From: Frankiales bacterium
GTDB lineage: Bacteria; Actinomycetota; Actinomycetes; Mycobacteriales; SCTD01
Assembly (NCBI GenBank): GCA_025352005.1
Contig: JANXUE010000159.1
Span: 1-52,390, forward strand
DNA length: 52,390 nt
Direction of reading: 5' to 3'
In this document: positions 5,981-38,886 of the stretch, piece by piece
Layout of the letters: the number at the start of each line of letters is the position of its first letter
How positions within the stretch are numbered: position 1 is the first letter of the stretch
Notes under the pieces: model-generated
The model's database searches: none
Told to the model about the DNA's origin: nothing
What the model saw: the letters and a program-made list of their open reading frames with translations, nothing else
Position numbers and translations under genes: made by a program

Positions 5981-6069
5981 GTCCGGGTGGCGGAATTGGT
6001 AGACGCGCTAGCTTGAGGTGCTAGTTCTCAGTGATGGGATTGGGGGTTCAAGTCCCCCCTCGGACACCA
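5981..6069 (+). tRNA. tRNA-Leu, anticodon GAG, long variable arm, CCA encoded
   Basis: GTCCGGG...CTCGGAC forms a 7-bp acceptor stem. The anticodon stem is CTAGC/GCTAG with loop TTGAGGT (anticodon GAG). The T arm is GGGGG-TTCAAGT-CCCCC, followed by discriminator A and CCA. Confidence 0.9.
6012..6067 (+). repeat. attL core: 3' part of tRNA-Leu, identical to 27441-27496
   Basis: cttgaggtgctagttctcagtgatgggattgggggttcaagtcccccctcggacac was checked base by base against the second copy. Confidence 0.9.
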
Positions 6070-6282: not shown

Positions 6283-7578
6283 GTGCAGGTGGCCTCGGGA
6301 GTAGCAGTGGCGATCAACCGCGACGGGGACAAGTACGACCAGCAGGGCGTCCCGATGTACCGAGTGCGGGTGTACGACGCACAACTGCGCAAGCAGGTGG
6401 AGCATCGGGTCGCGGGTGAGGACCAGGCCCGGTCTGCCGAGGCCGACCTGCTGGCCCAGGTGAAGGTGCCGCTAGAGCACCGCGGTGCGACCGCAGACGT
6501 CATCGCGGCCGCAGTGGCGCAGGGGCGTCCGGTCGTGACGACCACCAACAAGATCACGGTCCGTCAGTGGGCCGAGCAGTACTTGGAGCTGTTCAAGCGA
6601 CGCCCCGACGGCGGGGTCCGGCCGTTCTCCTCATGGGACCACGACCGGCGATGCCTGGAGATCTACATCCTGCCGCACATCGGTGAGCGCTCCCTGACCT
6701 CACTGCGGCTGCACGAGCTGGAGGACCTGGTCTCCTGCTCGACCAAGCGCGACGGCATCACGCCGCTGGCGGGGGCGACCAAGGAGAGCATCGCAGGAAC
6801 GATCAAACGCGTCTGGAAGATGGCCGAACGCCGCACCGACATGCTCAGAGCACAAGGCAACCGGGCTGCTGGGCTGTCCACCTCCTGGGGTGGGCAGTCG
6901 GAGGAGCGGGCCGCTATCGTGCCGAGCATTGAGGACGTGTTCCGGCTTTCGGCTTGCATCGAGCAGCGGTCCGCCGGCTACGGCGACATCGTGGAGCTGA
7001 TCGCCTTCACGGGACTGCGCTGGGAGGAGATCAGCGCCCTCCCGGTCCACAACGTGAGCTGGGACGACATGCGCGTGCATGTGGAGTGGTCTGCGACCTT
7101 CTCGGGTGGCAGACGCACCTTGCGTCATGAGACCAAGTCCAAGGCCGCGAACCGGTTCGTGCCGATCCCCGTCCAGGCGGAGGCTCCGCTGCGACGGTTG
7201 ATGGCTGCCAGCGAACGTCGTCGCCAGCAGCACCCGGGCTTTGGGGACGAGGTCCTGGTGGTCACCAACACCATGGGTGCGGCGTTGCACTACAACACCT
7301 GGCGGATCGCCCTGGACAAAGCCCGTGAGGCCAGCGGCGTGGCCTACACAGCTCACCCACTGCGGCATGTCGCCGCCAGCCTGGCGATCAGCTCAGGTAT
7401 GAACGACGTCGAAATCGCGGCCATGATGGGTCACCGCAACAGCGACTACACGCGCAAGATTTACGGGCACCTGTTCCCCTCGGACGGTCGCGAGGTGGCG
7501 GCGCGGATGACCAAGGCCATCGAGGCGGCGGTGGCGCAGGAGCAGGCGCTGGCTAAGCGAGGGTTGACGCTCGCCTGA
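6283..7578 (+). CDS. int: Tyrosine-type site-specific integrase
   Basis: 431-aa ORF with FTGLRWEEISAL (Arg I) and HPLRHVAASLAISSGMNDVEIAAMMGHRNSDYTRKIYGHL (H-x-x-R, H, Y). It sits next to the tRNA att site. The start could also be ATG 6355. Confidence 0.9.
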   Translation: MQVASGVAVAINRDGDKYDQQGVPMYRVRVYDAQLRKQVEHRVAGEDQARSAEADLLAQVKVPLEHRGATADVIAAAVAQGRPVVTTTNKITVRQWAEQYLELFKRRPDGGVRPFSSWDHDRRCLEIYILPHIGERSLTSLRLHELEDLVSCSTKRDGITPLAGATKESIAGTIKRVWKMAERRTDMLRAQGNRAAGLSTSWGGQSEERAAIVPSIEDVFRLSACIEQRSAGYGDIVELIAFTGLRWEEISALPVHNVSWDDMRVHVEWSATFSGGRRTLRHETKSKAANRFVPIPVQAEAPLRRLMAASERRRQQHPGFGDEVLVVTNTMGAALHYNTWRIALDKAREASGVAYTAHPLRHVAASLAISSGMNDVEIAAMMGHRNSDYTRKIYGHLFPSDGREVAARMTKAIEAAVAQEQALAKRGLTLA

Positions 7579-11140: not shown

Positions 11141-12502
11141 TCATCCCGACCGTTTTAAGGAAAAGCCGACATACCCACATTGCCCTTGTTCACAGCAAAG
11201 GTTAGTTTGTCCCCCGAGACCACCGTCGAGGTGCTTCGAGCACGAACGGCACGTCCAGCAGCCAAGGCTGCGGCGCGGTCGGGTCGAGCGCGGTTCTGGC
11301 ATCTGACGAGGCTCCCGGCAGGCAAATCGCGGCCGGCCGGCCCGACCGGGCCGGTCGGCCGCACCGCACCGCACCGCACCAGCGATAGCAGCGCCTACCC
11401 GCACCCGGCGCCGCCCGGGGCTTCTCGGCATCGGCGTCGCACTGATCGCGCTGGCCGCGTTGGCAGCCGCTGACCTGACCCAGGTCGTGGGCAGCACCCT
11501 CCCGGTGGGTGCAGCTCTCGGGTCGGGGGCGAATGCCTTACCAGCCGCACTTGGCACTCCGGCGGACCCGGTGTCCTGCCATCGCCGCTGCAGTTGCGGG
11601 AGGGTCAGGTCGGGTGCGAGTTTGCCGCCCCCAAAGTAGATCGGCTTGCCGCCGTTGTCGTAACGGTCCGGCAGCGCCACTGCGTAGCCGGTGACCTCAC
11701 CGGGGGTGCGTTCGCTCATCCGCGCACGGACCAGCAGCCCGTCGGACCGCAACCGGGCGAAGAACTCGGTCAGGTCACCGGCGCCAGCTGCTGCGGTCCG
11801 TACGTGTGGGCGCAGCACCTCCCGGTCCGGCGCCGCCGGAGCGGGCAGCCCCTCTGCGCTTCTGCGCCGCGCAGTCGCCTGGTGCTTGCGGCTTTCTGCC
11901 CGACTGGTCGACGGTGCCCCAGTGCGGCCGTTGGCGCTGGTCGCGGTGAGTCCGTACTTGCTCTCCAGGAAGCGGCTCGCCTCCATCGAGCGGTACCGGT
12001 CGTTGAACAGCCGGGGGCGCCGGCCGTCCTGGCGCGCCAAGGTCGCCACGATGTGGATGTGATCGGAAGCGTGCCGGACCGCGACCCACCGAACCCCCGT
12101 GTCCTCCACCCGTTTGGCCAGTCCCATCTGGTCCATGTACTCGCGGGCGATGTCGGCCCACTGCTCATCCGACAGGTAGCGGTCGACCAGCTGCCCGGTG
12201 TCCGGGTCCTTCGCCGCAGCAACCGTGAGGTGATACACCGGCTTGTACTTCTTGAGCTGGTCGCGGTCGAGGGCCAGCACCGGTTCGTTGAGCCGGCTGA
12301 CCAGCCCCCGGAAGTCTCGCTGGCCGCCTGCGCACGCCGGCGGCTGCAATCCCTCCAGATCCGCCGTGTCGTCCCAACCGGCGATGACCCTGGCGTCGGC
12401 GTGGGCGGATTCCAGCCCCTTCTCCCCTGCCAGGCCCTCCGTGAACAGGTAGTAGAGCAACCCGCGCACCGAGCCACCGCGCGGCAGTACCTGACCGATC
12501 AC
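11141..12502 (-). CDS. Relaxase/mobilisation nuclease (MobA/VirD2-type domain); 3' third of doubtful integrity
   Basis: GTG start. N-terminus reads IGQVLPRGGSVRGLLYYLFTEG... The histidine triad region reads VAVRHASDHIHIVATL. A later segment reads LTEFFARLRSDGLLVRARMSERTPGEVTGYAVALP. After about residue 330 the translation becomes low-complexity and ends in an AT-rich patch. Confidence 0.75.
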   Translation of the reverse strand: MIGQVLPRGGSVRGLLYYLFTEGLAGEKGLESAHADARVIAGWDDTADLEGLQPPACAGGQRDFRGLVSRLNEPVLALDRDQLKKYKPVYHLTVAAAKDPDTGQLVDRYLSDEQWADIAREYMDQMGLAKRVEDTGVRWVAVRHASDHIHIVATLARQDGRRPRLFNDRYRSMEASRFLESKYGLTATSANGRTGAPSTSRAESRKHQATARRRSAEGLPAPAAPDREVLRPHVRTAAAGAGDLTEFFARLRSDGLLVRARMSERTPGEVTGYAVALPDRYDNGGKPIYFGGGKLAPDLTLPQLQRRWQDTGSAGVPSAAGKAFAPDPRAAPTGRVLPTTWVRSAAANAASAISATPMPRSPGRRRVRVGAAIAGAVRCGAADRPGRAGRPRFACREPRQMPEPRSTRPRRSLGCWTCRSCSKHLDGGLGGQTNLCCEQGQCGYVGFSLKRSG

Positions 12503-12521: not shown

Positions 12522-13028
12522 TTAGGCCAGCCGGCGCGCGAGCGCTGCTGCGGCCGTGTCGACCCGGGCCACCGCTCGGTCGCCGCCGGCGATCGACTGC
12601 TCGAGCCACACCGGCGCGTCCGCCCCGCTGTTGAGTACAGCAGCGGCCTGGTTGACGTTGACCCCGTACCGGCGCAGCGCCAGCCGCGCCTGGATCAGCT
12701 CGGCCAGCAGCTCGCGGTCCTCACGGTCCGACCAGGAAACCACCGCCTGCCGGACTTCGGTTGCACCGTCCTGAACCACATCGCCGCGCGCCTCCAAAAC
12801 CCGCCGCGCCATCCGAAGCGCCGCCGTCGCCACGTAGCTGCTGGGCCGAAGCCCCGCCACCTCCGCAGCCCGCTCCACGGTGTCCCGCTCCTCCTCGCTG
12901 TAAAGCACCTTCACCACATGACCCCGAGCCGGAAACAGGTGCGGGCGATGCCGCCCCAGCAGCACCGCCGCTTCGACCTCCAGCGGAAGCGCCAACCCAT
13001 CTGGCCTCACCACCTGCTGCTCAGACAT
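12522..13028 (-). CDS. mobC: MobC-family mobilisation (relaxosome accessory) protein
   Basis: ...VKVLYSEEERDTVERAAEVAGLRPSSYVATAAL... is RHH-like, and ...LIQARLALRRYGVNVNQAAAVLN... is the MobC signature (LRRxGxNxNQxA). The gene lies 19 nt upstream of the relaxase. Confidence 0.8.
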   Translation of the reverse strand: MSEQQVVRPDGLALPLEVEAAVLLGRHRPHLFPARGHVVKVLYSEEERDTVERAAEVAGLRPSSYVATAALRMARRVLEARGDVVQDGATEVRQAVVSWSDREDRELLAELIQARLALRRYGVNVNQAAAVLNSGADAPVWLEQSIAGGDRAVARVDTAAAALARRLA

Positions 13029-13435: not shown

Positions 13436-13795
13436 CTACCGCTCAGGCCACAGCTCGCTGGGCTCGAAGTACTCGCCCTCGTCCTCGACCTGAACGCAGA
13501 CACCAGCGACGACGTAGCCCTCGTAGGAGGCGCCCGTCACGACGTAGAACCGGACCTCGTCGTCCGGGAGCAGACCAGTCGCGTCGACGATCCGTCGCTG
13601 CTGTTCTTCGTCGGCCTCCGTGACCGTCAAGCCGGGCAGCAAGGTCGCAAGATTGAGCACTTTGACGTTCTGGAAAAGGACGTCAACCCGCGTTGTGCAC
13701 CCCTCACCCTTCGTGCTGCGCAAGAGCAGGCGGCGCATGCCCACCGTGTAGGCCCAGACTTGGAAGACCCGGGCCGGCTGATCGACGAGCGTCAT
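13436..13795 (-). CDS. Hypothetical cytoplasmic protein (119 aa); candidate immunity partner of the upstream secreted protein
   Basis: MTLVDQPARVFQVWAYTVGMRRLLLRSTKGEGCTTRVDVLFQNVKVLNL...YEGYVVAGVCVQVEDEGEYFEPSELW. The composition is clean coding and acidic. Its ATG overlaps the upstream stop (ATGA at 13792-13795). Confidence 0.6.
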   Translation of the reverse strand: MTLVDQPARVFQVWAYTVGMRRLLLRSTKGEGCTTRVDVLFQNVKVLNLATLLPGLTVTEADEEQQRRIVDATGLLPDDEVRFYVVTGASYEGYVVAGVCVQVEDEGEYFEPSELWPER

Positions 13796-14442
13796 GGCGC
13801 CCATGGGTTCTCCACTGGCACGCCCCCACGAACGAATGTCGCGGAGCCCAGACGGTCGGCGTCGTACAGGAGTGACATCTCCCAGTCGGTGTACCCGCCG
13901 ATGCCCGCTGCTCCCCGCTGAGCTGCGCCTGCGATCTGCGAGTAAGTCGAAGAGCCACTCAGACCATCGAGGCTGACGGTGAACTTCGTAGAAGAATCAC
14001 CCACAGCACGCTGAAGCGTCCCCATCCATTCCGGGTCGCTGAGCAAGGTTCGACCACCGACCTTTGCCGCAGTCGCCTCGAGGCCATGGGCCTCCAAACC
14101 AAGCACGATGTGGTCGCCAGCGCCGCCTGCTGCTTCTGCGGCACCAGAGGAAACCGGCTTGTGGCGAACGACCCAGATTTCCCAAGGCGCCCGGGCCGCG
14201 CTTGACCTGCTGGAACGATCTTGTGGGTTCGTTGCGCCCGGCGTGTCTGACAACTGTTGAGTGGCGCGGTCGTAAACGTGACTGGCCTTACCAAAGGTCG
14301 TCGTAGGTGCAGCCAACGCTGGGCCAGCTCCTACGGTTGAAGGCCCCATTTGCGCGAAGAAGACGAGCAGACCGGACATGACCGCCATCACCCAGGGCGT
14401 GACCCAGGGCAGCCATCGACCACGGGCCGAGATGTGGGTCAT
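13792..14442 (-). CDS. Secreted/membrane-anchored protein (216 aa) with an unassigned ~110-aa C-terminal domain; candidate toxin
   Basis: From ATG 14442: MTHISARGRWLPWVTPWVMAVMSGLLVFFAQMGPSTVGAGPALAAP is signal/TM-like. A low-complexity linker follows. The C-terminal domain reads DHIVLGLEAHGLEATAAKVGGRTLLSDPEWMGTLQ...KFTVSLDGLSG...GGYTDWEMSLLYD... ATGA overlaps occur at both ends. Confidence 0.6.
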   Translation of the reverse strand: MTHISARGRWLPWVTPWVMAVMSGLLVFFAQMGPSTVGAGPALAAPTTTFGKASHVYDRATQQLSDTPGATNPQDRSSRSSAARAPWEIWVVRHKPVSSGAAEAAGGAGDHIVLGLEAHGLEATAAKVGGRTLLSDPEWMGTLQRAVGDSSTKFTVSLDGLSGSSTYSQIAGAAQRGAAGIGGYTDWEMSLLYDADRLGSATFVRGGVPVENPWAP

Positions 14443-14684
14443 CCCTGCTCTGACTCCACGAGCAAGTTCGACGGCAACACCTTGCTCGCGCCGAGAATTT
14501 CGATTCCCACTATTCCGTCGGTGGCGTCGAGACCAAGGATGACAGCCGAGCCTTGCAACCCGACGTCGCAAAACTTCGTTCTAGCGACCGTGCGTCCTGG
14601 CCCGAGTCCCACGACGTAGATGTAGGCGGCATCGGCCTCTGGGTCGTACTGGATCTCAAGGCTTCGACTTACCATCCTGACCAC
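14439..14684 (-). CDS. DUF2283-family small protein
   Basis: ...SLEIQYDPEADAAYIYVVGLGPGRTVARTKFCDVGLQGSAVILGLDATDGIVGIEILGASKVLP matches the DUF2283 pattern (YDxEADALYI...GxlvGIEIL.AS). The start may be ATG 14675. The stop overlaps the next ATG (14439-14442). Confidence 0.65.
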   Translation of the reverse strand: MVRMVSRSLEIQYDPEADAAYIYVVGLGPGRTVARTKFCDVGLQGSAVILGLDATDGIVGIEILGASKVLPSNLLVESEQG

Positions 14685-15373
14685 CCGTTGCTCCTCGCCA
14701 TTCCAGCCACGTCACTTAGGGGCCATCCCCGGTGCGCCGTTACGATCGCCCCGTCCGCGTTCTGAATGATCAGGTTGTAGCTGTCCTTCCCAGCTTGGGC
14801 GACGTAGGCGAATGCGCCGTCGGCCTGTTCGTATTTGCTTCCGGCTCGAATGATCGCCACGTCAATATCATCGAATCCAGCCTCGCCGATGCGGATCGCC
14901 CCGTGGGCAGTGGTGTTCCCCGAGAAGCCGCCGAGCGAGCCGCCACGATCAGGATTCAGCGTACGGTCCATCCTCGCGCGTGCAAGGCGCCCGAACCCAC
15001 CTGCACCGTCTTCTGCGGCAACGCGAGACAGGTGAACAACGGTTGATTGGCGCAACAAGCCCACGGGAGTCACCGACGAGCCTGGAGTAGGCGTCTTTGC
15101 CGAGGCGTGTTCCGCGTGCTCGTCGAAGGTGTACTCGCCGGCCGTCGTAGCGGCAGATGGCGAATCGCAAAGGACCACCTTCAGCCGCGTCGGCGGCCGG
15201 CCCGGCGGATGCTCTGCTCCGATGTGCTCTGCGACCGAGAGCGTCGTCGAGTTCCCGGCCTCAACGCAAGATCCAGCGACGGGAGAGGTAGCCGCGGATG
15301 CCATCCCGGTAGGCAAGAGCACCGCCAGGACGGTCGCAACGATCGCGACGAGGAGCAGCCGCAAGCGCGCCAT
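14669..15373 (-). CDS. Sec-signal protein (234 aa) with C-terminal DUF4258-like (RelE/BECR-type) domain; candidate secreted RNase toxin
   Basis: From ATG 15373: MARLRLLLVAIVATVLAVLLPTGMASA is a signal peptide. The C-terminus TAHGAIRIGEAGFDDIDVAIIRAGSKYEQADGAFAYVAQAGKDSYNLIIQNADGAIVTAHRG resembles the DUF4258 pattern H-A-x-x-R-x-x-E-R-G-I...G...VV...I-I-T-x-Y. The assignment is by eye only. Confidence 0.55.
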   Translation of the reverse strand: MARLRLLLVAIVATVLAVLLPTGMASAATSPVAGSCVEAGNSTTLSVAEHIGAEHPPGRPPTRLKVVLCDSPSAATTAGEYTFDEHAEHASAKTPTPGSSVTPVGLLRQSTVVHLSRVAAEDGAGGFGRLARARMDRTLNPDRGGSLGGFSGNTTAHGAIRIGEAGFDDIDVAIIRAGSKYEQADGAFAYVAQAGKDSYNLIIQNADGAIVTAHRGWPLSDVAGMARSNGWSGW

Positions 15374-15402: not shown

Positions 15403-15696
15403 TCATTGCGACGCGTTGCCGTTTGGAGGATCCGCCCATGGGTCGCCGAGTAGGTACGGGACGGATACGTCCAGCACGTCGCCAAGCGCCTCCAGCGCCT
15501 CGCGCTGCGTCGGGGTGACCTCGATGTCGTACTCATAGACCTGCGTGCAAAGCGTCTCAAGAGCGATCTGCAGCTCGCCGGCCGCGATGAGGACCCTGAC
15601 CTGCTCAACATCCGCCAGGGGCAAGCCGGCGGCCGCGTCTACCGCTTGCTGGAGCATGTCCGCGGCGACGGCGCGGTCCACCGACTGGCCGCTCAT
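15403..15696 (-). CDS. MafI-like immunity protein for the Rhs C-terminal toxin
   Basis: 97 aa: ...[47 protein letters not shown]... resembles the MafI-family core (E-W/L-x-x-A-L-E-x-L-C-x-x-L-Y-E-x-x-I/V). Its ATG overlaps the Rhs stop (ATGA at 15693-15696). Confidence 0.6.
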
Positions 15697-18600
15697 GGGA
15701 GCGGGAATCCGGTGATGATGCCTTCGCCGCCGGGTTCGACGATGACGCGCATTGGAACACCGTCGCGAACGCCGTCGACGTAGAACCGGACTGGGGCACC
15801 GTTCTTTGTGAAATCAGCCCCCAGCTTCCCGGTCTGCTGAACCCAAGTCAGGCTCGGGTCGGTGGCGATGTCGGAGACGTTATGCATGATCTGGCCCGGC
15901 GACCAGCTACTCGGGAAGAGCGTGTTCCCAGCCTCACCAGGCGGCATGTGTCCGTCGAGGATGTGCGAGGTTCGCGACTTGCTTGCAAGGTTGACGAGGC
16001 CACTATCCGCTTCTGCGGCGCTGTGCGCGTCGCTCGGCTGCAGTGCTCTAAGTGTGGCTCGTTCGGCATCTTCGGCCCCTTGGAGTGCGCGCTCTCCACG
16101 TTTGAAGCCTTGGAAGGCGTCAATAGCATCGCCCATCAGTGACCACAGGCGCTTCGCGAGGCGGGCGCCAGCCTTCCAGCGCCATGGTGCTCCGTACTTC
16201 TCGATGATCTTCCCTACCGCGCCGCCAACTGCGGCAAGCAGGACGTTGACGGCGGTCTCAGCGCATCCCCCGATGTTGCCCTGCAGGCAGCTAATGCCCG
16301 CGCTGACGCCGGTGAGGTCGGCGACGATCTTGACGATGCCCTTGACGTGCTTGATGACTTGCGACTTGGCCTCGTCGCGGTCGTGGCGGGCTGCCTCAAC
16401 GACGGCGTGCGCGTTGTCGCTGCTGACTTTCTTGGAGACAGCCTTCTCCATGGTCGCGCTCTGGACCTTGCCGTAGTACTGGTCCTCCGTGCGCAGTCCC
16501 GAGGCGTCGCTGAAGGTGATGGGGCTGTTGTTGGCGTAGCTGTACGCGGCGAGTTGCTGGGGGTCGGTCGGGTCGATGATGCGGTCGACGCTGATGAACC
16601 GTCCCTGGGTGGGGTCGTACTCGCGTGCTCCGAGCCGGGTCAGGCCGGTGCTGGGGTCGTTGGTGCCGCCGACGAACCCCTTGTCCCCTGCTGGCCAGGA
16701 TGCTGCGGAGCCACGGGCTCCCCCGAAGGGCTGGATGTAGCGCTTGGTGACAGCGTTCGTGGCGTTGTTGATCGACACCAGGGGCGTGCCGTTTGGGTCG
16801 TTCGCCAGGGTGCTGACACCGCCACCGCCGCTGTTGCGCTGGGCGACGATGTGGCCACCGAACTCGTAGTAGCGCTGGGCACTCAATGACCCGCTTGCCT
16901 TGTCCAGCGTCAGTTCGGTGCCGTCGAGGTACAGCGTGGTGTTGGTGGGGGTGCGCCGCAGCAGCCGTTCACCGTTGGCGTCGTTGAGGTAGCTGGAGGT
17001 GCCGGCGCTGGTGGTGACGGTGCTGAGGGTGTCCTCGGTGTTCCAGGTGAGGGTCTGGGTGGGCTGGCCGGCGAGTGCCCGCTGCGTGGTGTTGCCCGCG
17101 TTGTCGTACTGGAACGCGTCGGTCGTGATTCCGGCTAGGCCGGTGCTGGTGACGTTGGCGACGGCGTGCGGCCGTGCTTGGCCGGCAGGGGGGTAGGCGT
17201 AGGTGCGGGTGGTGTCCCCCGCGCTGCCATGGTTGACCTCGCTGGTGCGGTTGCCTAGGACGTCGTACCCGAAGGACTGCCAGTAGGGGGAAGGTCCGCC
17301 CAGGGTGATGCTGCTTGGCGCTGCGTTGCAGTCGGTGGTGGTGGGGGTCCAGGCTTGGGTGAGGCGCCTGTAGTTGTCGTACTGATAGCACTGCGTGTCG
17401 ACGGCACCGGGGGTGTTGTCGCCCATGCTGGTGACGTTGCCGGCGGGGTCGTAGGTGAGGTTGTAGTCCGCCGCGCCGGGCAGGTTCTGCCGGTCTACTT
17501 TGATCTCGTTGAGGCGGCGGGTGGCCTGGTCGTAGAAGAAGGTCTGGTAGTTGCTGTAGTTGACCGTGTTGCCCATGGTCAGCTGGGTCGTCTCACCGTA
17601 CGGGCTGTAGGTGGCCCCGGCGACGTAACTGCCGACGCCTGCGAGGGTCTTGGGCTGTCCGAGAGTGTCGTACCCGTAGGTCAGGGTCTCAGCCGGCAGG
17701 CCGGTGACGGCAGGCAGTCCCATTCGTTGGACGCTGCCGTCGGCCCAGTACAACAGGTTGGTTGTGTACGTCCCTGCCAGTGCGCCTTCGATGGCGGGGA
17801 TCGTCAGGCTGTAGCCGGTGGGCTTGTAGTCGACGTCGTAGCCATTGACGGTCGTGGTGTAGTCGGCTCCGTTGACGCTGCGCGTTGCGGTGTCGACCTG
17901 GCCTAGGGCCTTGCTGTCGTAGGTCCACTTGGCTGTGATGGGTGCGTTGCTGTTCGGGCCGTCGTACTGCGTGGTGCGGCGGCCGATGACGTCGTAGGCC
18001 CACGTCTGGCTCTGCGAGTTTGCGTTGGTGCTGGTAACGAGCTGGTCGGCGTTGTCGTAGACGCTGCTGCTAACGCCCTTGTCGGGGTCGTTGGCCTGGA
18101 TGCGCCGCCCGAGTCGGTCGTAGGTGTAGGTCCAGATGTTGTTCTGCGGGTCCTTGACGGTCGCGAGCTGGTCGGCGGGCGTGTAGCTGTACCGGGTGCT
18201 GTCGAACGTCCCCGTCGGGGTCGCGCCGGCGTAGACACGCTTCTCGCTCAGCCGTCCCCGCACGTCGGTGTAGGTGCTGCTCGCGGTGCCTCCAGGTGGG
18301 GGGGTCACGGCGGTGACGTCACCGTCGTAGCTGATGCTGCTGCGCCACTTCTCGACAGCGTTGCTGTAGAAGATGTTCAGCGTGGGCCGGCCTACGCCGT
18401 CGTAGTTGGTGACCGTCTGGGTCGGGATGGCGCCGTCACCGGTGGGCTGGAAGATGGTGCCGGCTGGGGCTCCAGTGGTGTAGTAGGGACCGTTCTGCTT
18501 GGTGACGAGCCCACGTTCGTCGTAGATGGTGTCGGTGATGACCCGGTTGCCGGTGCCGTCCAGCGCGGTCGATTGGGTCTGGCGGGGGCGTAGGAGACCA

Positions 18601-21600
18601 TCGAGGATGCTGATGTTGCGGGTGTAGGTGCCGTCGTTGCGGACCTCGTTTGTCGTGACGTACGTCGGGGCGCTCTGGCTCAGTGAATAAGCGAACGTGG
18701 CCGTTGCGGTCGCGCCCCCAGCCTTGCTCCGGTCGGGCATCCACGCCGCCGTGATCCGGCCGAGGCCGTCGTAGGTGAGCTCGGTGCGGCGGTTGTTCAG
18801 GTCAAGCTGGCTGTCGGGGGTGCCCCAGGCGGCGTTGAGGTTGGTCGTGCTGGTGAAGGCTTTGCCGGCGGGGTCCTGGATCTCCTTGACCTGGGTGACG
18901 GGTCCACCGGCGGCGGGGGTGTAGCTCGTAGTCGTGAGCCGGTTGAGGCCGTCGTAGCTAGCGGTAGTGCGGCCGTTGCCGTCGTAGATGTACTGCTCAC
19001 GGGTGACGTAGACGGGCCCGGTCGTCCAGTCGCTCATCTCGTCCTTGCGGACGAGCAGACCTCGGGTCGGGGTCGCGCCGAACGTGGTGGCGTCGTCGAA
19101 GTAGCTCCGACTGTCGGTGATGATGTCGGCGGGTCGCGTCGGCGTGACGTTGCAGGCCACCGACACGGTCTCGGTGTGGCTGATGAGCGAGACGAGATAG
19201 CTGCTGGTGTTGCGCGTGTAGTCGTACCGGCTGCACCTGTCGTCGGTGCTCAGGCTGGTGTCGCCGAGGTCTTCGACCTGGGTCGGGTCGCCGTAGGTGT
19301 CGTCGTAGGTGGTTCGGGTCTCGGTGTTGCGGAATCCTCCGGTACTGACGGCCTCGCGGCTGCGGACGTTCGCGGTCCGGAGCATCAGGGCTTGAACGCT
19401 TCCGTTCGTGGCGGTCGCGGCACTGATCCACGGGTCGTTCACGGTGCTGTTGACCTCGGGGCCGCCGACGCCGTTCAGCGTGATCATCTCGCGTTCGAAC
19501 CCGGCGAGGCGATCGCTGTCAGCCAGCACTTCGCCGCGGGAGTCGGTGATGCTCACCGATCTGGTCGTCCCGCCAGGCAGGGTGTCACCGTCCATGCCAC
19601 GCATGAACAGGTGCTGGGTCGCCAGTCTCGGTCCGCCGGGGTTTCCAACGATCTCGGTGACCTGGCTGTAACCCCTGGCCTGGCCGTACGTCCGGAACTT
19701 GGCCGGAGTGAGCTCGTTGTTGTCGTAGTGCCAAGCGAGGGTGTCGGCGTAGGCGTAGGTCGTCTGCTTGGTGGCGACCAACGTGGTCTGGTCGTAGTCG
19801 GTGACGAAGTCCACCGGGTACTTGTGGAAGTAGTTGAGCGTCGGCGTCACCGTGCCATCGGGGGCGTAGTAGACCGGGAAGCAACGCTTGTTGTCCGTTG
19901 ACGGGCTCGCGGGGATGTTGCTGCTGCTGCACTCAGCGGCCCTGTAGCTGATGCCGGTGACTCCACCGGTCTCACTGGTGATCTTGTTCAGGCGGTACTT
20001 GATCATGGCGGGACCCAGAGCCGGGTCGACTCGGTTGGGCAGTTGGGTGTAGCCGAAAGTCACGGGCGGCAGGGCGACGGCTGTTCCCACGTTGCCCGTA
20101 TGAGTGATCTTCGTGAGCCGCAGGGCTTTGCTGGTGCCGTCACCCGGGTCGGGGAAGTCCTGCGTGAGCGTGTAGGTGTCGACGGGGGTGTAGGCCGACC
20201 CGCTGTAGACCTGGGTCTGGACTTGGGTGACTCGCTTGCGGCTGAAGAAGGTGGGAGTGGTGCGGTTGGCGCAAGTGGACTCGGCTGAGGTGCAGACGCG
20301 ATCGACCGGGACATCGGGCCAGTAGGCAGCGTTGGCGGTGGTGAACTGCGCGTCGCTGCAGGTGATGGTCCCGCTGGGCAGGCAACGTTCAGCGACGGTG
20401 AAGGCGACGTGCTGCGGGGCGGTCGTGGTGGCTTCGCCGCCAGCGCGTTCACCGAAGTCGATGCCCGTCAGGTAACCGCCGCGGTAGTAGGACGCCTTGG
20501 TGGTGTTGTTGTTCTGACCGTAGTAGTTGATCTCTCCGGTGTACTGGTAGGTCATAGTGTTGCCGTGCGGGTCCACGACGTAGCTGAGGTTCCAGCGCCA
20601 CGGCTGCAGGCAGAAGGAGGAGGCGTACGCGGCGTTGTAGCAGCGCTCTGCACTCTGGTTGCCACTGACGGGTACGGTCCAGATGCTGCTGTTGGTGGCC
20701 GTGTCCCCGCTGTAACGGGTGTTCAGACCGAAGTAGTAACGGGTCCCGTCACTTGTCGTAAGAACCCACGAGGCGGTGTCGGCACCGGTGGCCGCCGGGG
20801 CGTGCGTCATGCGGCTGCCGTCGTCGTCCTTCAGGCGCCACAACCCTGTGGTCGCATCATGGACGAGCTCTCCGCTGTGTCCGGGCAGGCTCAGCGTGGC
20901 GTTGTCGTTCTTCCAGCACAGGTCCCCGGTGCTCAGGCTGGCGGTGTTCCCGCCTGCCTTGTCGTCGTTGCACGAGACGTAACGACGCTCGATGAACCCG
21001 CTGCTGAGGTCGTGGCCTTCACCCACCCAGCTGGGCTGCGCGTTCGTGGAGGCAACCCGCCCGTCAACGCTCTGCGATGAGTAGTCCAGTGACAGGCTCG
21101 GAGCCGGTCCCCCTTGGGTGGGTGGCACGCGCAGCGGGTAGCTCCACTGGAAGTCACCGGTGTTGAGCCCCACCGTCCACGTCGACGAAGGAGCCAAACT
21201 CGTGGCGGCGTAGCTGCCGCTACTTCCCGACGCGCCAGCCGCGGCTGCCAAGACGACCGCCCCGGAAAGGGTCCGGGGCATCTGAGCGATCAGGACCTGG
21301 TTGCTGGTGTCGTTACGCGTCGCTACCGGTGTTGTCGTCTGACACCTAAGCACCGCTGGCGTGCTCAGGAAGCAGGCCGGGAGCGCGACCAGCGACAGTC
21401 GCTGCGCGTAGTCACCTCCGAACCCCCCTGCCCAGCTCCGATAGCTCACACTGATCCGAGGGCGCTTGGTCAGCTTCGTCCTGTCCGACAGGGTGAAGAC
21501 GAGACCACGCATGATGCGTGCCTGGGGACTGGCCTGGCCGAGCAGCCGCGCGCTCAGCCCTGTCGCGTCAGATCCGCGGCCCACCGAGACCGGGTGGGCG

Positions 21601-21857
21601 GCTGTCGGCGCGCCTCCAGTCAGGGCCCAGCTCGCAGCCGCCGGCATCTCGACATGCCCCGGCACGGGCTCGGCACCTGCAGGCGCAGGTCGGGGTTGCG
21701 AAACACGCAGTGTGCTGCCGGGAACTACTCGTTCCCGTTTCACGACTGGCTTGCGAAATGATGCTCTGGAGTTGTCCGCGACGGCAGGCGTGCCGTAGGC
21801 CATCACCGCCAAAGCGGTTGCCTGGGCGATCAGAGCGACAGCTGCGCGTCGACGCAT
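15693..21857 (-). CDS. RHS repeat-associated core domain polymorphic toxin (2054 aa): signal peptide, SpvB/TcB-like N-region, YD repeats, EndoU-type C-terminal nuclease
   Basis: Signal: [28 protein letters not shown]. SpvB-like block: [33 protein letters not shown]. Many YD/YxYDxxGR repeats are present ([27 protein letters not shown]). Core end: [15 protein letters not shown]...[17 protein letters not shown] (about 16494-16508). C-terminal end: [31 protein letters not shown]...[17 protein letters not shown]. Confidence 0.9.
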
Positions 21858-21899: not shown

Positions 21900-24620
21900 C
21901 TAACCGGCGAGGACGTTCAGGGTCGTGTCGTCGAAGGAACCCTGAAACAGCCGCACGTCGTCGACATAGCCCGGGAAGCGTTGGGCGCCGCCGGACGCGG
22001 CACCGATCCGGAACTCGCCAGCGCTGCTGTAGTTCACCCGTCCTGCGGGCGCGATGGCGAGCTTGCCAACGTTCATTCCTGCTACTGCCAGCGAGAGGGT
22101 CGGGCTGTCGTCGGCCTCGTACTGGGCGCACACGCTCTCCCAGCCGACGCCAGACACCAGGGTGCTCGTAACCCGTGCGACAGGTCCCGTCGCGCTGTTG
22201 GTTGTGTGCAGGGAGATCTGATAACTCCCGGCCCCGCCGCTGACGGCGTACTCCAGTTGCCATGCGTACGTGGCCGAGGTGCTTTGGTGGGCGACGACGT
22301 ACGTTCCGTCAGCAAGGCCGTTCATGGCCTGCACGTAGGCGCAGACTGTGAAGTTGTTGCTTACCGAGAGCAATGCCGTTGTTGGTACCGCCGACAAAGA
22401 GCCGCCGGCCGTCAGGTCTACGGCTCGGTCCCCGAGCGTTGCTGAGTTGTTGGGATCGTAGAGCCGTCCAACAGTCAAGGGGACAGTCGTTGTCGAACTG
22501 ACAGCGACCGAGCCGACGGTCCCGGAATCGGGTGACGTGTAGGGACTTGCGCCGTCCACTGAATCCAGCTTGTACCGGTGCGTGGAGTCCGCGACGGTCC
22601 CGTAAACGTTGAAGCGGTAGACCGTCTGTGGGCTGACGTTGCCAGCAAGGTCCTTGGAGGAAACCTTCAAGTAGTGCGGGCCGAAACTGGGCGGCGCGAA
22701 GGTGGCGTTCGCTGCGGAACCCGAGGCTGTCACGGGGATAGTCGGGGTATCCACGTCAAAGCCGTAAATGAAGCTCACCGCCCCGGTGGCGCTGAACGCG
22801 AACGTGCCAGCGATGCCGGATCCACCATGCGAGGCACCGTCAGATGGATAAGCGATGGAACTGACGCTTGGGGAAGGAGGCGCGCTCGTGTCAACAGTGA
22901 ACTCGCACGTCGCCGACGCCGCAGACGTGGTGTAGCTGTCGATGGCAACTGCATAGAAGCTGTACGTAGTTCCGTTGACCACTTGGACGGCGGGCGACAC
23001 ATGTGTCCCTGGCGACTGTGCGCTGGCCGTTGCATACGATGAGTAGGTAGTCGACTGCGACCCCTTGTAGAACCAGCGGATCGCGTCCATGTCGTCGCTG
23101 GAGTCCGCTGACGTTGCCTGGAAGACCACTGAATTCGCGCTGATAACGGGCCGGGTCGATCCGGTCACGCAGGTCTTGCTCGGGGTGCTGAGCCTGTTGC
23201 CGCTGATGGTCGGCTTCACGTCGAAGGTTACGCTCAGCGTCGCATCGTACCTGAAGCGCTTCCAGTTGAGCGGATCGGTCTCGCTTGCCTGCAGACTCAG
23301 AGTGATCGAGGAAGCGCTGGAGTCTGCTGCCGCTTGCAATCCCGCTGTCGCCGTAAAGGCCACGTGAGGAGTGGTACCTCCGCAGGTGTCGCCGCCGGCG
23401 AAGGTTTGCACGTCGAGCGCCGTCAGGTTGGCGGGCTTGCTGTTCCAGTTGGTACTGCTGGTGAAGCTGTTCGTTCGGTACAGCGTGACAGCACGCGCGG
23501 TGCAGTAGGCCGAGTGCGTGTTGTAGGCGAGAAATTTAGCGGAAGTGATCTTCGTCCCGCGCCACGTCGTGGAGCCATTGATGCTGGTGAAGGTGCTCGG
23601 GAAAGTCCAGTAGAGGCGCTTCGTGCTCTGACCGCTGTAATTCTGATAGCCAACGCCCTGATCGTTAGCCCAGTTGTAGTAGCTAACGTCCGGGTAGTAG
23701 CCGTCCACCATGAGGCGTGCACTCTGGCCTGGTCCGACCGTGGGATCGATGTACACGGGGTATCGAGTCGTCACCGCGTCGAGCAACGTCGCGTTGGGCA
23801 CGAGGTTCAGCACGCTATCGGCGAGCGTCATGCCGACAGCACGGACAAGGTCACCCTCGACCGGACCCCGCAGTCGGTCGACAGGTCCCGGTACCGGCAC
23901 AGCGCGGGCGTCGGCGGCTCCGGCGCTTGAATCCCACATCGCGGGCGGCGGGACACTCAACAGCTCATTCTTGGCGTTGTTGACAAACCCGATCCGGCCC
24001 GTTGCGTCCTGCTTGGCAGTGAGGCCGCTGGCCTGCATCCCCAGCGACAGGGCGCGCAGCTGCGGGTTCTTGCCAGCTTCGAGCGTCTTGACGACGACGA
24101 CCTCCCCAATGCCGTCACTCTTTGCAGTGACCTGGAGGTCGACGCCAGGCAAGACGTCGGCGAAGGTCGCCGTATCACCGGTCAGTTGCGGAGTGGGAAG
24201 GGCCGTCGGCCAGGACATAGCCACCGATCCGCGATCGCCTGGCACACCGATGCCGTATACGAGCCTGTCCCCGCCACCGCCGATGCGTTCAGCGAGCAAC
24301 GTCGCGCCCGGCTCGACCGTGCCATCGCTGCTGCGGCGCAGAGTCGTGTCGATGGCGGTCCACCCACCGTTGCGCTCAACGCGCGTCGGCACCGCCGAGG
24401 CATCCACCGTCGTCGTGCCGTCGGGGTTCGACCAAACCGTCGAGTACGGAGTGCGTGCTGACAGCACCTCAACCCGCTGACCCGTGCTGCTGGCCTGTGC
24501 AGCTGGGTCACCCGTCGCGGTGGTGCTGCCCGCCGCATGGGTCTGCGATGGCATTAACGACAACGTTACGAGGCTCAGCGTAGACACAAAAAGAGCCGAC
24601 CTGCGACGGCGAGCAGCCAT
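21900..24620 (-). CDS. Secreted 906-aa protein with central DNRLRE/CBM-like region and C-terminal LamG (concanavalin-A-like lectin) domain; Rhs-associated
   Basis: Signal: MAARRRRSALFVSTLSLVTLSLMPSQTHAAG. Central region: ...VTLYRTNSFTSSTNWNSKPANLTAL... The C-terminus ...FRIGAASGGAQRFPGYVDDVRLFQGSFDD is the classic LamG ending. A 42-nt gap containing GAAGGAA precedes the Rhs ATG. Confidence 0.8.
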   Translation of the reverse strand: MAARRRRSALFVSTLSLVTLSLMPSQTHAAGSTTATGDPAAQASSTGQRVEVLSARTPYSTVWSNPDGTTTVDASAVPTRVERNGGWTAIDTTLRRSSDGTVEPGATLLAERIGGGGDRLVYGIGVPGDRGSVAMSWPTALPTPQLTGDTATFADVLPGVDLQVTAKSDGIGEVVVVKTLEAGKNPQLRALSLGMQASGLTAKQDATGRIGFVNNAKNELLSVPPPAMWDSSAGAADARAVPVPGPVDRLRGPVEGDLVRAVGMTLADSVLNLVPNATLLDAVTTRYPVYIDPTVGPGQSARLMVDGYYPDVSYYNWANDQGVGYQNYSGQSTKRLYWTFPSTFTSINGSTTWRGTKITSAKFLAYNTHSAYCTARAVTLYRTNSFTSSTNWNSKPANLTALDVQTFAGGDTCGGTTPHVAFTATAGLQAAADSSASSITLSLQASETDPLNWKRFRYDATLSVTFDVKPTISGNRLSTPSKTCVTGSTRPVISANSVVFQATSADSSDDMDAIRWFYKGSQSTTYSSYATASAQSPGTHVSPAVQVVNGTTYSFYAVAIDSYTTSAASATCEFTVDTSAPPSPSVSSIAYPSDGASHGGSGIAGTFAFSATGAVSFIYGFDVDTPTIPVTASGSAANATFAPPSFGPHYLKVSSKDLAGNVSPQTVYRFNVYGTVADSTHRYKLDSVDGASPYTSPDSGTVGSVAVSSTTTVPLTVGRLYDPNNSATLGDRAVDLTAGGSLSAVPTTALLSVSNNFTVCAYVQAMNGLADGTYVVAHQSTSATYAWQLEYAVSGGAGSYQISLHTTNSATGPVARVTSTLVSGVGWESVCAQYEADDSPTLSLAVAGMNVGKLAIAPAGRVNYSSAGEFRIGAASGGAQRFPGYVDDVRLFQGSFDDTTLNVLAG

Positions 24621-25260: not shown

Positions 25261-26963
25261 CTAGGACCCCGAGTCCGTAACGGTTGACGTGCTGCCGGGC
25301 GGCCACGGCGGTGGCGCCTTTGCCGGATGTTGCGTCAGAGGCCTGGCGAAGGTGTGGCGCCATGGTCGTGAAATTGCTTGAGGCCGGTCGACGGGGCAGC
25401 CCGTTTCGTGTCGCGGGGTGACCCCAGCACCTTTAGTTGGTGGCCATCTGGGTGGTTGTCCATCCGGACCCTGCGAGTTTGCGGAAGTTGTGGCGGGCCA
25501 GGTGGAAGGTCCACTCGATGTCGGCTTTGACCTGGCCGCGGAGCCGTAGTTGATGGCCGCCTTGGGCGACGTTGATCTGACCGAAGACCGGTTCCACGAT
25601 CGCCTTGCGCCTGGCGTAGTCGGCCTTGCCCTTCTTGGTCCGTAGTTTGCGGCTCATCCGCTGTTTGGGGGTCAAGGCCGCCGGGATCTGCCCACGTGGC
25701 GCCGCTGGTGGTCTCTCGCCGTGCTTGAGCCGCCCGGTCGCCAGCAGTGGGTCGATCCCCGCAGCGGTGACCGCCTCGACGTTGTCGGCGGAGAAGTACC
25801 CAGCATCGGCCAGTAGCGTGCGGGGCGTGCCGTCGATGCCGGCCGCGGCCAACGAAGACGCCAGCTCGGTGAGCATGTCCGGCAACGCCGAGCAGTCCGC
25901 ACCGGACTGCCGCAGCGACGCGGCGAGCACCACCTGACTCTTCTCATCCACCACCGCCTGACCGTTGAAGCAGTAGTGGAACGACCCGTCCGAGGTCTTC
26001 ATGATCCGCGCGTCCGGGTCGGTGAACGAGCGTTGCGCCCGGTCGGGGACGACCGCGACAGCTTCGGCCGCGTCACCAGCCTCGATGACCTGAGCCGGGT
26101 CCTGACCCCTGTTCGGCTGCCGCCTGTTCAGCCTGCGCACGGGCCTTCGCGGCGTGCTCGGCCTCCAGGGCGGCCTTGGCCTTGCGGATCGCGGCCAGCC
26201 GGCCTTCCCGGCGGGCCAGCTCAACCGGCTGTTCATCACCGCGCCAGTCGGTGCCGTAAGCGGCATCCTCGGCAGCGTCCAATCGCTCCGCGTCGGCCAG
26301 CAACGCATCGACCTCATCTGCGAGTTCGCTTTCAGCTCGCACCATCCGGTCGTAGCTCATCGCCCGATGCCGGCTCGCGGCCGCCCGCACCTTCGTCCCA
26401 TCCAGGGCGACCCGGCCAAGCGACACCAAACCGGCCTGCGCCCACAACGTCAACGACTGGGTGAACAACGCCTTCAGAGCGGCCCCGTGCCGGGTCCGGA
26501 ACCGGCTGATCGCCACGAAGTCCGGTGCCACCTGAGCGGTCAGGAACCGGTACGCGATGTCGTCGTGGCAGCGACGCTCCAACGCCCGCGAGGAGGTGAT
26601 CCCATGGGAGTAGCCATAGATCAGAATCTTCAACGTCAGCCGCGGGTCATACGGCGGCGCACCCCGCACCTCGGTGTAGTCGGCGTAAACCGCGGACAGG
26701 TCCAACCCGTGCTCAACCAGATCATCGACCCAACGCGCCGGATAACCGGCCGCCAACCAGTCCCGAAGATCAGGAGCCAACAGCATCGGCTGGTCCTGGT
26801 CATAACGCCGAAACGTCCTATCCACAGCCGATTTCGCCTGTCCCGACCCCGCTGAGACCGGCTTCACGACCATCAACACCGATTGTTGGGCGACCTGAGG
26901 CTTCGACATACCCCATTCACCTGTAACCACAGGCCTTTACGTGTTACCGACACGGGGTCCTAG
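25261..26963 (-). mobile_element. IS1182-family insertion sequence (~1.7 kb)
   Basis: Terminal inverted repeats are CTAGGACCCCGAGTCCGTAAC (25261-25281) and the reverse complement of 26943-26963, CTAGGACCCCGTGTCGGTAAC, matching at 19 of 21 positions. The transposase ORFs lie inside. Confidence 0.8.
25433..26909 (-). pseudogene. IS1182-family transposase, split into two overlapping frames (frameshift between 26073 and 26317)
   Basis: The N-terminal frame (to 26073) reads MSKPQVAQQ...YGYSHGITSSRALERRCHDDIAYRFL... (DUF772-like). The C-terminal frame reads ...FTDPDARIMKTSDGSFHYCFNGQAVVD...ADAGYFSADNV...VEPVFGQI... (DDE). Family members normally carry one ORF. Confidence 0.75.
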
Positions 26964-30347: not shown

Positions 30348-30844
30348 TTCACAACACCGCATTTGTTTCTTGGTGGGCCCTTAGCATCGATCACCGTTGA
30401 TCTCGAAGGTCGTGCGGTGAAAGCTGGTCGGCCAGCGTCCTGGCCCTAGCCCGGAGGAGGGCAGGGACAAGCGGTGCGGGTGAGGCACAGGTCGTGCAGG
30501 GCGCCTCAGCTTCCGGGCCGGCGGAAGACAGCGGGGTACATCGCCGCTACGAGGCCACCGGAGATCGCACCCGCGGCAGCACCGTCAACCCATGAACCTG
30601 CGACTGCGCGGATCAGCAGGACCACCAGGCAGGTCGTGACGATGACGAGCACCGTGAACGCGCCGATCCTTCGCGGCTCAGGGCCTGCTTGGCGCGTAGC
30701 GCCTGGTGGTAGCGCCAGTCCATCTTCTTGGTAGCGCTGTTCTGGGAACTTGGTAGCACTGCGGCGGGTACGCCGTCGGGCCTGCTCTGCTGAGGGCGGC
30801 GACACGCTGGGTGTCGCCGTTCTTTGCGTTGGAGGACGAAGTTC

Positions 30845-38583: not shown

Positions 38584-38886
38584 TCATGGTGTTCTGCGTC
38601 TGAGCCGGGCGGCGGTGCTGGGTGAGACGCCGAGGAGCTGGGCGATGTCGGTCCAGGTGAGCTCTTGGTCGCGGGCGTCGTCGATTGCTGTAGGGAGCAT
38701 CTGGTGGGCTTGGCTGATGAGGCTGGCCAGGGCGTGTAGTCGGACGCCGCTGTCGCCGAGCCAGTAGGCGGTGCGCAGTCGCGCGAGGTCGTCGAGGGCC
38801 TGTGCCAGCACGAGCGCGCTGTCGTCGTCGGCACGGGGTGCGGGCAGGTCGTCGGCGCTGGTCAGGCGCAGCGCGGGGCGGGTCAT
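38584..38886 (-). CDS. Small protein (100 aa) with C-terminal HTH; TnpC-like third gene of a two-recombinase module
   Basis: ...ELTWTDIAQLLGVSPSTAARLRRR. Its ATG overlaps the stop of the upstream recombinase (38883-38886). Confidence 0.5.
   Translation of the reverse strand: MTRPALRLTSADDLPAPRADDDSALVLAQALDDLARLRTAYWLGDSGVRLHALASLISQAHQMLPTAIDDARDQELTWTDIAQLLGVSPSTAARLRRRTP

Follow-up and report, generated by a model that had tools for sequence, protein, structure and literature searches.

A pair of overlapping genes on the minus strand of contig JANXUE010000159.1, from the Frankiales bacterium assembly GCA_025352005.1, is the subject of this analysis. The window is the whole stretch of 52,390 nt, and residue numbers refer to the 234-residue toxin that it encodes. 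A first-pass annotation, made from the letters alone, had described a protein of 234 residues with a signal peptide and a DUF4258-like C-terminal segment, overlapped by a DUF2283 gene, and had read it as an RNase fold of the toxin-antitoxin (TA) type recruited as a secreted effector, with DUF2283 acting as immunity. The observation was confirmed, and the interpretation was partly supported. We consider it likely that the two genes form a polymorphic toxin/immunity cassette that belongs to an Rhs toxin island, carried by a mobile element inserted at a tRNA-Leu gene. The pair comprises the following features.

14669..15373, minus strand, stop codon included: gene for the 234-residue precursor of a predicted small secreted toxin (list of open reading frames, sequence and seven homologues).
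15293..15373, minus strand: predicted Sec signal peptide, residues 1-27, MARLRLLLVAIVATVLAVLLPTGMASA, with predicted cleavage after ASA (heuristics for n-, h- and c-regions).
15020..15292, minus strand: variable linker, residues 28-118, with a Y-x-F/Y-D motif (EYTFDEH), ending in the junction RVAAE (alignment and motif comparison across toxin arrays).
14672..15019, minus strand: swappable C-terminal toxin module, residues 119-234 (BLASTP identity of 116/116 to the tip of Rhs protein P0010; DNA junction at codon 119).
14672..14920, minus strand: folded toxin core, residues 152-234, in the order a1-a2-b1-b2-b3-b4-a3, DUF4258-like and of predicted BECR topology (AlphaFold2 model, column conservation and Pfam matches of relatives).
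14439..14684, minus strand: DUF2283 gene, predicted cognate immunity gene, of 81 residues from a GTG start and probably 78 residues from ATG 14675 (PF10049, conserved pairing and co-variation).
14133..15019, no strand assigned: 887-bp block with 99.9% DNA identity to the 3' end of the otherwise unrelated Rhs locus L008, 7162-8048 (blastn).

The toxin frame runs from ATG 15373 to the TAA at 14669-14671, and its start is preceded by AAGGG, a plausible ribosome-binding sequence. Three homologues with N-termini that can be aligned with it (P0003, P0004 and P0006) start right at the signal peptide. A longer reading of 256 residues, which would add 22 residues from the in-frame ATG 15439, is matched by no homologue; this ATG lies 37 bp within the upstream immunity gene and has no Shine-Dalgarno-like sequence. 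The N-terminus, MARLRLLLVAIVATVLAVLLPTGMASA followed by alanine at the predicted cleavage point, starts with MARLR (two arginines) and has a 15-residue hydrophobic core and A-x-A at positions -3/-1; neither a lipobox cysteine nor a twin-arginine motif is present in it. Five of the six close homologues (P0002-P0004, P0006 and P0007) have a hydrophobic leader despite near-zero sequence identity in this region, and the sixth, P0005, which has none, begins at a contig end. The same arrangement of a leader and a short linker only recurs in about 20 more distant family members. By eye the leader is a textbook Sec signal, from which we infer that the protein is probably exported. The first-pass view of a Sec-like leader joined to a C-terminal toxin-type domain therefore stands, on the n-, h- and c-regions as judged by eye and on a conserved C-terminus of about 110 residues.

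The linker (residues 28-118) is poorly conserved in the homologue alignment. The segment that follows it, residues 119-150 (nt 14921-15019), AAEDGAGGFGRLARARMDRTLNPDRGGSLGG, is conserved in close homologues and present on the Rhs-borne copy of the tip; distant relatives lack it, and the structural model shows it as disordered except for one short helix. It might serve in processing, in entry or as a pre-toxin linker.

The C-terminal domain is shared by very different carriers. In nearly all of the approximately 150 best relatives, proteins of 60-1932 residues, it ends within about 10 residues of the C-terminus, and the N-terminal parts of these relatives include RHS repeats (14 proteins), PT-HINT (10), DUF6531 and PT-TG. 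An extreme C-terminal domain common to unrelated N-terminal carriers is one mark of a polymorphic toxin; a second, an immunity-type gene directly downstream, is provided by DUF2283, which co-varies with the tip. P0010, an Rhs protein of 1597 residues, ends in 116 residues identical to residues 119-234 of the window toxin, and its gene is followed by an 81-residue DUF2283 protein that differs from the window copy by one residue (99%). At the DNA level, the 887-bp block begins exactly at toxin codon 119 and holds the tip, the DUF2283 gene and about 100 codons of a third toxin gene. This block marks a recent toxin/immunity cassette exchange between a small leader-only carrier and an Rhs carrier, and because it ends about 100 codons into the third toxin gene, the exchanged unit was larger than one toxin/immunity pair. 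The idea that P0010 is the window's own Rhs protein with a swapped tip was rejected, the two Rhs proteins being only about 28% identical. The proposal of an exported toxin with an immunity partner thus gains support from the occurrence of the tip on Rhs, PT-HINT and signal-peptide proteins and from the retention of DUF2283 in six homologue loci.

The downstream partner belongs to DUF2283, as had been suggested from the sequence: PF10049 matched the 81-residue open reading frame (40.5 bits, E=3.2e-10, profile positions 2-49 of 49), which is above the Pfam gathering cut-off of 23 bits, and all 14 homologues carry a precomputed match to the same profile. The Pfam scan returned no helix-turn-helix or ribbon-helix-helix match on the DUF2283 protein. 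Its start is more likely to be ATG 14675 than GTG 14684, since ATG 14675 gives a 7-nt overlap with the toxin stop (ATGGTAA) that equals the spacing in five homologue loci. DUF2283 lies directly 3' of the toxin gene in all six close-homologue loci, with an overlap of 7 nt in five and of 4 nt in L003, and the pairing extends to 7/7 loci when the Rhs locus is counted with them. The DUF2283 proteins of L001-L007 are 53-73% identical to the window copy, and toxin and DUF2283 identities co-vary (r=0.90 for 21 pairs that are not phylogenetically independent). DUF2283 as the universal partner of this toxin fold was considered and rejected, as stand-alone relatives carry a Cys-rich partner of about 60 residues. 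The literature searched yielded no description of DUF2283 as an immunity protein; two papers in it name the domain, neither in that role. The regulator FseA belongs to a DUF other than DUF2283. A 2015 paper on an integrative and conjugative element that mentions 'DUF2283' concerns the FseA/QseM regulators and was judged irrelevant.

Some relatives of the pair have other arrangements. Stand-alone toxin-family members of about 95-157 residues without a leader occur at L013 1447-1930, L016 3864-4338 and L015 1953-2652. A DUF4417 gene precedes the toxin gene in two of these cases (L013 and L016), a Cys-rich protein of about 60-74 residues (CxxC...CHxxC) follows the stand-alone relatives, and one locus includes spore-coat genes. 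These proteins may represent a cytoplasmic, TA-like branch of the family. Of two distant DUF2283 loci that we inspected, one has a 50-residue open reading frame of unclear nature and the other a toxin remnant beside a transposase. The latter is the locus of the orphan DUF2283 protein P0226 (L018, about 2050-2455; also L019), where only the last 15 or so residues of a family toxin, the LARNYGW helix, remain upstream, truncated beside a DDE_5 transposase gene. The cassette seems to have decayed while keeping its immunity gene.

We examined the genomic context of the close homologues. Their loci lie among Colicin_D/Colicin_immun, Ntox21, PT-HINT and RHS genes, near primase and integrase genes, and four of them contain arrays of 3-5 small proteins of about 170-250 residues (L001 6001-11484, L003 4945-7483, L004 4213-6821 and L007 16-3692). 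The array members share a scaffold that consists of a leader, at least one Y-x-Y-D motif that recalls a single YD repeat, and a G/R-VAA-[E/K/N] junction, followed by unrelated C-terminal tips, with a small open reading frame after each gene. The VAA[E/K/N] junction was found in 13/123 family members against 2/174 background windows. These arrays look like a family of mini polymorphic toxins, of which we found no description.

A word-indexed search of 5.8 billion proteins returned only 7 relatives of the toxin. Across residues ~125-234, identity within a set of 7 proteins is 61-73%, and 48 alignment columns do not vary. Profile searching of 1.84 billion cluster representatives (clusters defined at 50% identity) with the C-terminal region returned 252 clusters at E<=1e-3 and 63 at E<=1e-10. 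Nearly all relatives lack a Pfam match and are labelled hypothetical, and no model in Pfam, including the Ntox families that it holds, recognizes the tip family. A genome-locus search with the close homologue set gave 3 loci, all from metagenome-assembled genomes of Actinomycetota. Sequence and profile searches of PDB chains with the toxin alignments and the DUF2283 protein gave only noise, and hhalign comparisons of the family profile with Colicin_D, Ntox21 and EndoU tips and with the neighbouring toxin gave probabilities of at most 3%. Among the relatives, P0008 (288 residues, a lipoprotein-like TPR protein on a 2.4-kb contig) has as its last 36 residues the C-terminus of the window toxin, YNLLIQNADGAIVTAHRGWPLSDVAGMARSNGWSGW; it is probably an assembly chimera and not a real fusion.

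The first-pass annotation had likened the domain by eye to DUF4258, and the scan that it proposed, of residues ~150-234 against PF14076, found no match. The family consensus reached 15.9 bits (E=0.017) against a gathering cut-off of 25 bits; with both the consensus and the window toxin below that cut-off, the domain is not a member of Pfam DUF4258. A superfamily-level signal was nevertheless real when followed through relatives. DUF4258 was matched by 6/148 full-length relatives at E<=0.01 and by 21/122 trimmed domains at E<=1 (best 3.9e-6), whereas no other Pfam family was matched by more than 4 of the 122 trimmed domains; Colicin_E5, another BECR RNase family, was matched by 3 (best 8e-4). 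The domain of P0150 aligned with positions 1-70 of the 71 in the DUF4258 profile (24.0 bits), and P0196, which ends in the family signature LARNYGW, has a precomputed PF14076 match; both lie at the DUF4258 threshold or close to it. When domains were joined into artificial ten-domain concatenates, DUF4258 was the top family in 8/10 sets, with E-values down to 3e-16, and the alignments were always anchored on the T-x-H-G motif. All sequences that a profile search of a large protein database returned were family members, and one of these was flagged PF14076. These repeated matches indicate that the domain belongs to a diverged sister family bordering on PF14076, a relationship at the superfamily level by sequence comparison; the DUF4258 likeness of the window toxin itself is supported only transitively, through relatives.

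A first AlphaFold2 model, built from 7 sequences, was discarded (mean predicted local distance difference test score, pLDDT, of 73; N-terminal third disordered), and a model built from 122 aligned relatives was used instead (mean pLDDT 95.1, predicted template-modelling score, pTM, 0.86). Numbered from residue 145, its elements are H12-21, H25-32, E35-38, E44-51, E54-60, E66-73 and H75-85. In the definition of Zhang et al. (PMC3482391), the BECR (Barnase-EndoU-ColicinE5/D-RelE) fold is an N-terminal helical segment and then a four-stranded meander; its strand 4 holds a conserved S/T, and some clades also have a single histidine near the N-terminus. The predicted model has this topology, N-terminal helices followed by a four-stranded antiparallel meander, and column conservation across the 122 relatives places an alcoholic residue in strand 4, a histidine near the N-terminus and a basic residue, as listed below.

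T155: 111/122, before helix 1.
H157: 121/122, helix 1.
G158: 119/122, helix 1.
R161: 102/122, helix 1.
Q183: 121/122, b1-b2 turn.
D185: 113/122, b1-b2 turn.
G186 and A187: 116/122 each, b1-b2 turn.
T212: 115/122, with Ser in 5 more, strand 4.
R/K215: 111/122, strand 4.
W231: 122/122, extra C-terminal helix.

The window toxin retains every one of these residues, and H157, R161, Q183, D185, T212 and R215 constitute a candidate active site. The suggestion of a BECR-type fold is thus favored by the topology and motif positions of a predicted model, although it did not obtain a significant structural match.

The pair is embedded in a larger toxin locus, which in turn lies among mobility genes.

15693..21857, minus strand: Rhs/YD-repeat protein of 2054 residues with an EndoU-type C-terminal toxin, at the head of the toxin locus (EndoU_bacteria, E=6.5e-10; TEN_YD-shell).
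15403..15696, minus strand: 97-residue MafI-family immunity gene for the Rhs EndoU tip (NF033691 immunity_MafI, E=5.4e-11, 42.2 bits against a cut-off of 31).
13792..14442, minus strand: third cassette, a 216-residue protein with a hydrophobic leader, an HVYD motif and a GAAE junction (sequence and comparison of architectures).
13436..13804, minus strand: 122-residue open reading frame overlapping the end of the third toxin gene, putative immunity gene (position).
5981..6069: tRNA-Leu(GAG), integration site of the element.
6283..7578: tyrosine integrase, directly after tRNA-Leu(GAG).
11141..12502: MobA/VirD2 relaxase.
12522..13028: NikA-like protein.
Among 25433-26317, 27668-29095, 30824-32494 and 38883-40124: a DDE transposase, two more integrases and a Mu-type transposase.

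The third toxin gene begins with an ATG that shares nucleotides with the stop codon of DUF2283 (ATGA, 14439-14442). Its tip gave only a weak match to Ntox27 (E=0.046), and the 122-residue open reading frame that follows had no Pfam or NCBIfam match. Directly upstream of the Rhs gene, at 21900-24620 on the minus strand, is a gene for a 906-residue protein with a C-terminal Laminin_G_3 (concanavalin-like lectin) domain; this protein may serve the Rhs system in adhesion or as an accessory. The region is bordered by chromosomal genes (to the left BacA and an M20 peptidase, to the right an SNF2 helicase and a GGDEF-EAL protein), and GC content is 64% across the cassettes compared with about 70% in the flanks. 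The toxin island appears to lie on a composite integrated mobilizable element of roughly 6-40 kb. A megablast comparison of window positions 10-26 kb with plasmids gave no meaningful match. A scan of 13-16 kb for promoters and terminators found none, which fits a single operon but is uninformative.

In the mechanism that we propose, the 234-residue precursor would be exported through Sec and its 27-residue leader cleaved off, to give a mature protein of about 21 kDa made up of the variable linker of about 90 residues, ending in RVAAE, and a tip of about 115 residues. The tip core (residues ~152-234) would enter a competitor cell and there most likely cleave RNA (tRNA, rRNA or mRNA) in a metal-independent manner. 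Catalysis would involve His157 (helix 1) together with Thr212 and Arg215 (strand 4), at a site that Arg161, Gln183 and Asp185 would line. The DUF2283 protein, whose translation is coupled to that of the toxin, would bind and block the toxin domain in cells of the producer and its kin. Recombination at the junction swaps the same toxin and immunity module among carriers, which are small signal-peptide proteins or large Rhs proteins. That the core is an RNase we hold to be about an even chance.

Several results weigh against this reading. The call of the leader is heuristic, based on n-, h- and c-regions recognized by eye, and the mature protein has no recognizable receptor-binding or translocation domain. 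Pfam gave nothing relevant for the 234-residue protein, the 256-residue version or residues 145-234, and no DUF4258 match even at E<=1, and the NCBIfam scan of the toxin returned noise. Foldseek found nothing at E<=1e-3 in PDB with either model, nor in BFVD. BrnT (3u97; E=0.63, TM 0.40/0.46) and colicin D (1tfo, 1tfk and 1v74; E 0.67-1.0, TM 0.32-0.40) recur with both models at sub-significant values (E~0.5-1, TM 0.32-0.47); it is the topology and the geometry of the motifs that support the assignment of the fold. The activity of DUF4258 itself is listed as unknown in one source (PMC11980606) and as 'tRNase (?)' in another (PMC11630599). Finally, distant relatives have a Cys-rich protein of about 60 residues downstream instead of DUF2283, and DUF2283 is therefore not a universal inhibitor of the toxin fold.

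The alternative that survives best, although we think it unlikely, is that the 234-residue frame is a silent orphan cassette, which stores tip and immunity gene for recombination onto an Rhs carrier, with DUF2283 protecting against kin that express the tip. Its position directly after an Rhs gene and the immunity gene of that Rhs protein is the classic one for an orphan; a full Rhs protein from elsewhere carries the identical tip, the DNA junction coincides exactly with the VAAE/AAE motif, and this motif recurs before different tips. However, classic orphans have no secretion signal, whereas this frame starts at a codon of its own behind a plausible AAGGG ribosome-binding sequence and encodes a well-formed signal peptide. 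Leader and linker are also kept in five of six homologues and in about 20 distant relatives although their sequences have almost fully diverged, which implies selection on export, and leader-bearing arrays occur with no Rhs gene within the DNA examined (L001, L004 and L007). Storage and export are compatible, and the two readings are not exclusive.

A further alternative, which we regard as quite improbable, keeps the secreted polymorphic toxin and DUF2283 immunity and makes the tip something other than an RNase: it would bind or modify DNA, the ribosome or a nucleotide and merely resemble the BECR fold. In its favor, there is no significant structural match to any characterized RNase or other enzyme. 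DUF4258 members have no demonstrated activity (PMC11980606), the profile comparison with Colicin D, Ntox21 and EndoU tips was empty, and some RelE/ParE-fold toxins, such as ParE, poison gyrase and do not cleave RNA (PMC11980606). On the other hand, an invariant histidine in helix 1 together with a threonine and Arg/Lys in strand 4 is the residue pattern described for BECR RNases (PMC3482391), and the weak matches are solely to RNase families (DUF4258, Colicin_E5, colicin D and BrnT).

It is very improbable that the pair is, in line with the common assumption for DUF4258/DUF2283-type pairs, a cytoplasmic type II TA module that stabilizes the integrated element, its hydrophobic N-terminus being a mis-called start or a membrane anchor: DUF4258 is catalogued among TA toxins of the RelE/ParE superfamily (PMC11980606), the DUF4258 partner in an E. 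coli TA survey is strictly downstream as it is here (PMC10790755), the locus is on a mobile element with integrase and relaxase, and stand-alone relatives of about 95 residues with a small downstream partner exist, but the conserved domain of the window protein begins only at residue ~119-150 with no internal start for a stand-alone toxin, a leader is present in five of the six close homologues, the same domain with DUF2283 ends a 1597-residue Rhs protein and the domain ends PT-HINT proteins too, both of them export architectures, and the neighbours are secreted-toxin/immunity pairs and not TA modules. A type II module has a cytoplasmic stand-alone toxin and usually a DNA-binding antitoxin; here there are a leader, a linker of about 90 residues and a bare DUF2283 protein. 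We retain the polymorphic toxin/immunity cassette as the best reading. The direction given in the first-pass annotation, recruitment from TA modules, was overstated.

Colicin D/ImmD and colicin E5/ImmE5 are known systems in which a small, metal-independent BECR tRNase has an adjacent gene for a small, tightly bound immunity protein. The window pair resembles them in having a small BECR-type domain (as predicted) and an adjacent immunity gene, and a Colicin_D/Colicin_immun pair lies beside the homologue cassette in L007. It differs in that there is no significant match in sequence or structure (TM ~0.32-0.40), in its candidate catalytic residues and immunity fold, and in lacking the translocation and receptor domains of colicins. 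Orphan tip/immunity modules of Rhs systems likewise sit directly after Rhs and immunity genes, and the identical module is Rhs-fused elsewhere; those orphans, however, are 5'-truncated fragments, and the window gene is complete.

BECR RNase tips on signal-peptide-only ('T2SS', for type II secretion system), Rhs and HINT carriers, with adjacent immunity genes, were catalogued in 2012 (PMC3482391). The systems of Zhang et al. (2012) share with ours the occurrence of a tip on signal-peptide, Rhs and PT-HINT carriers, recombining arrays, and predicted helices with a four-strand meander, a histidine and an S/T in strand 4. Our tip family differs in being unrecognized by Pfam, and its carrier is only about 120 residues; a text search of that paper did not find DUF2283. 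The Ntox49 clade has the signature 'H, [KR]' and is also present in phages and archaea (PMC3482391); it may belong to the same lineage as DUF4258 and the toxin family, to which we liken it by signature only. Compared with PF14076 (PMC11980606, PMC11630599), the family has the same T-x-H-G-x-x-R helix, second helix and four strands ending in V-I-T, as well as a downstream partner, but it adds a Q-x-D-G-A turn and, at the C-terminus, a helix in which Trp is invariant (L-A-x-N-Y-G-W). The PF14076 toxins are cytoplasmic, whereas our family is predicted to be exported. The Gram-positive S8-PTS, described in 2022, combines a signal peptide, a BetaH domain and a toxin with an S8 peptidase (PMC9424270). 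It also has a Sec leader, a short N-region, one of many tips (nine BECR families in S8-PTS) and an immunity gene, but the window differs in its VAA[EKN] junction and in its hosts, high-GC Actinomycetota. The N-terminal region of the window toxin had no Pfam match, BetaH not having been sought specifically, and no S8 peptidase was present among the window frames scanned.

A TA-type RNase fold used as an exported effector is therefore not new in kind, given the precedents of 2012 and 2022 and the listing of DUF4258 as an E. coli CdiA-CT type (PMC11630599), and the novelty implied by the first-pass annotation was too great in view of PMC3482391 and PMC11630599. Because BECR tips with adjacent immunity genes on Sec and Rhs carriers have been established since 2012, the advance is incremental. 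What is new is the unmodelled tip family, DUF2283 as a putative immunity protein, a swap at 99.9% identity with a defined junction, and a common scaffold for unrelated tips. A more far-reaching possibility, which we offer tentatively and consider rather doubtful, is that these genes belong to an undescribed class of actinobacterial mini polymorphic toxins, with a Sec leader, a Y-x-Y-D region, a VAA[E/K/N] junction and a swappable tip. Such proteins would act both as free bacteriocins and as a donor pool of Rhs tips, in arrays on integrative mobilizable elements; DUF2283 would then count as a new immunity fold that cytoplasmic TA modules also use, and the tip would form a new clade of BECR domains bridging DUF4258 TA toxins and exported effectors.

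If the proposed reading is true, it would place on the map an unannotated toxin family of at least 252 clusters, linking the uncharacterized DUF4258 TA toxins to exported effectors, and would give at least one branch of DUF2283, a domain of unknown function, a testable role in immunity. It would also provide a clean natural example of polymorphic-toxin diversification, between a carrier of about 230 residues and an Rhs carrier of 1597 residues, with a breakpoint defined by a motif. The pair is small, with a toxin core of about 85 residues and an immunity protein of 78, and would be an easy system for learning what DUF4258-type domains do.

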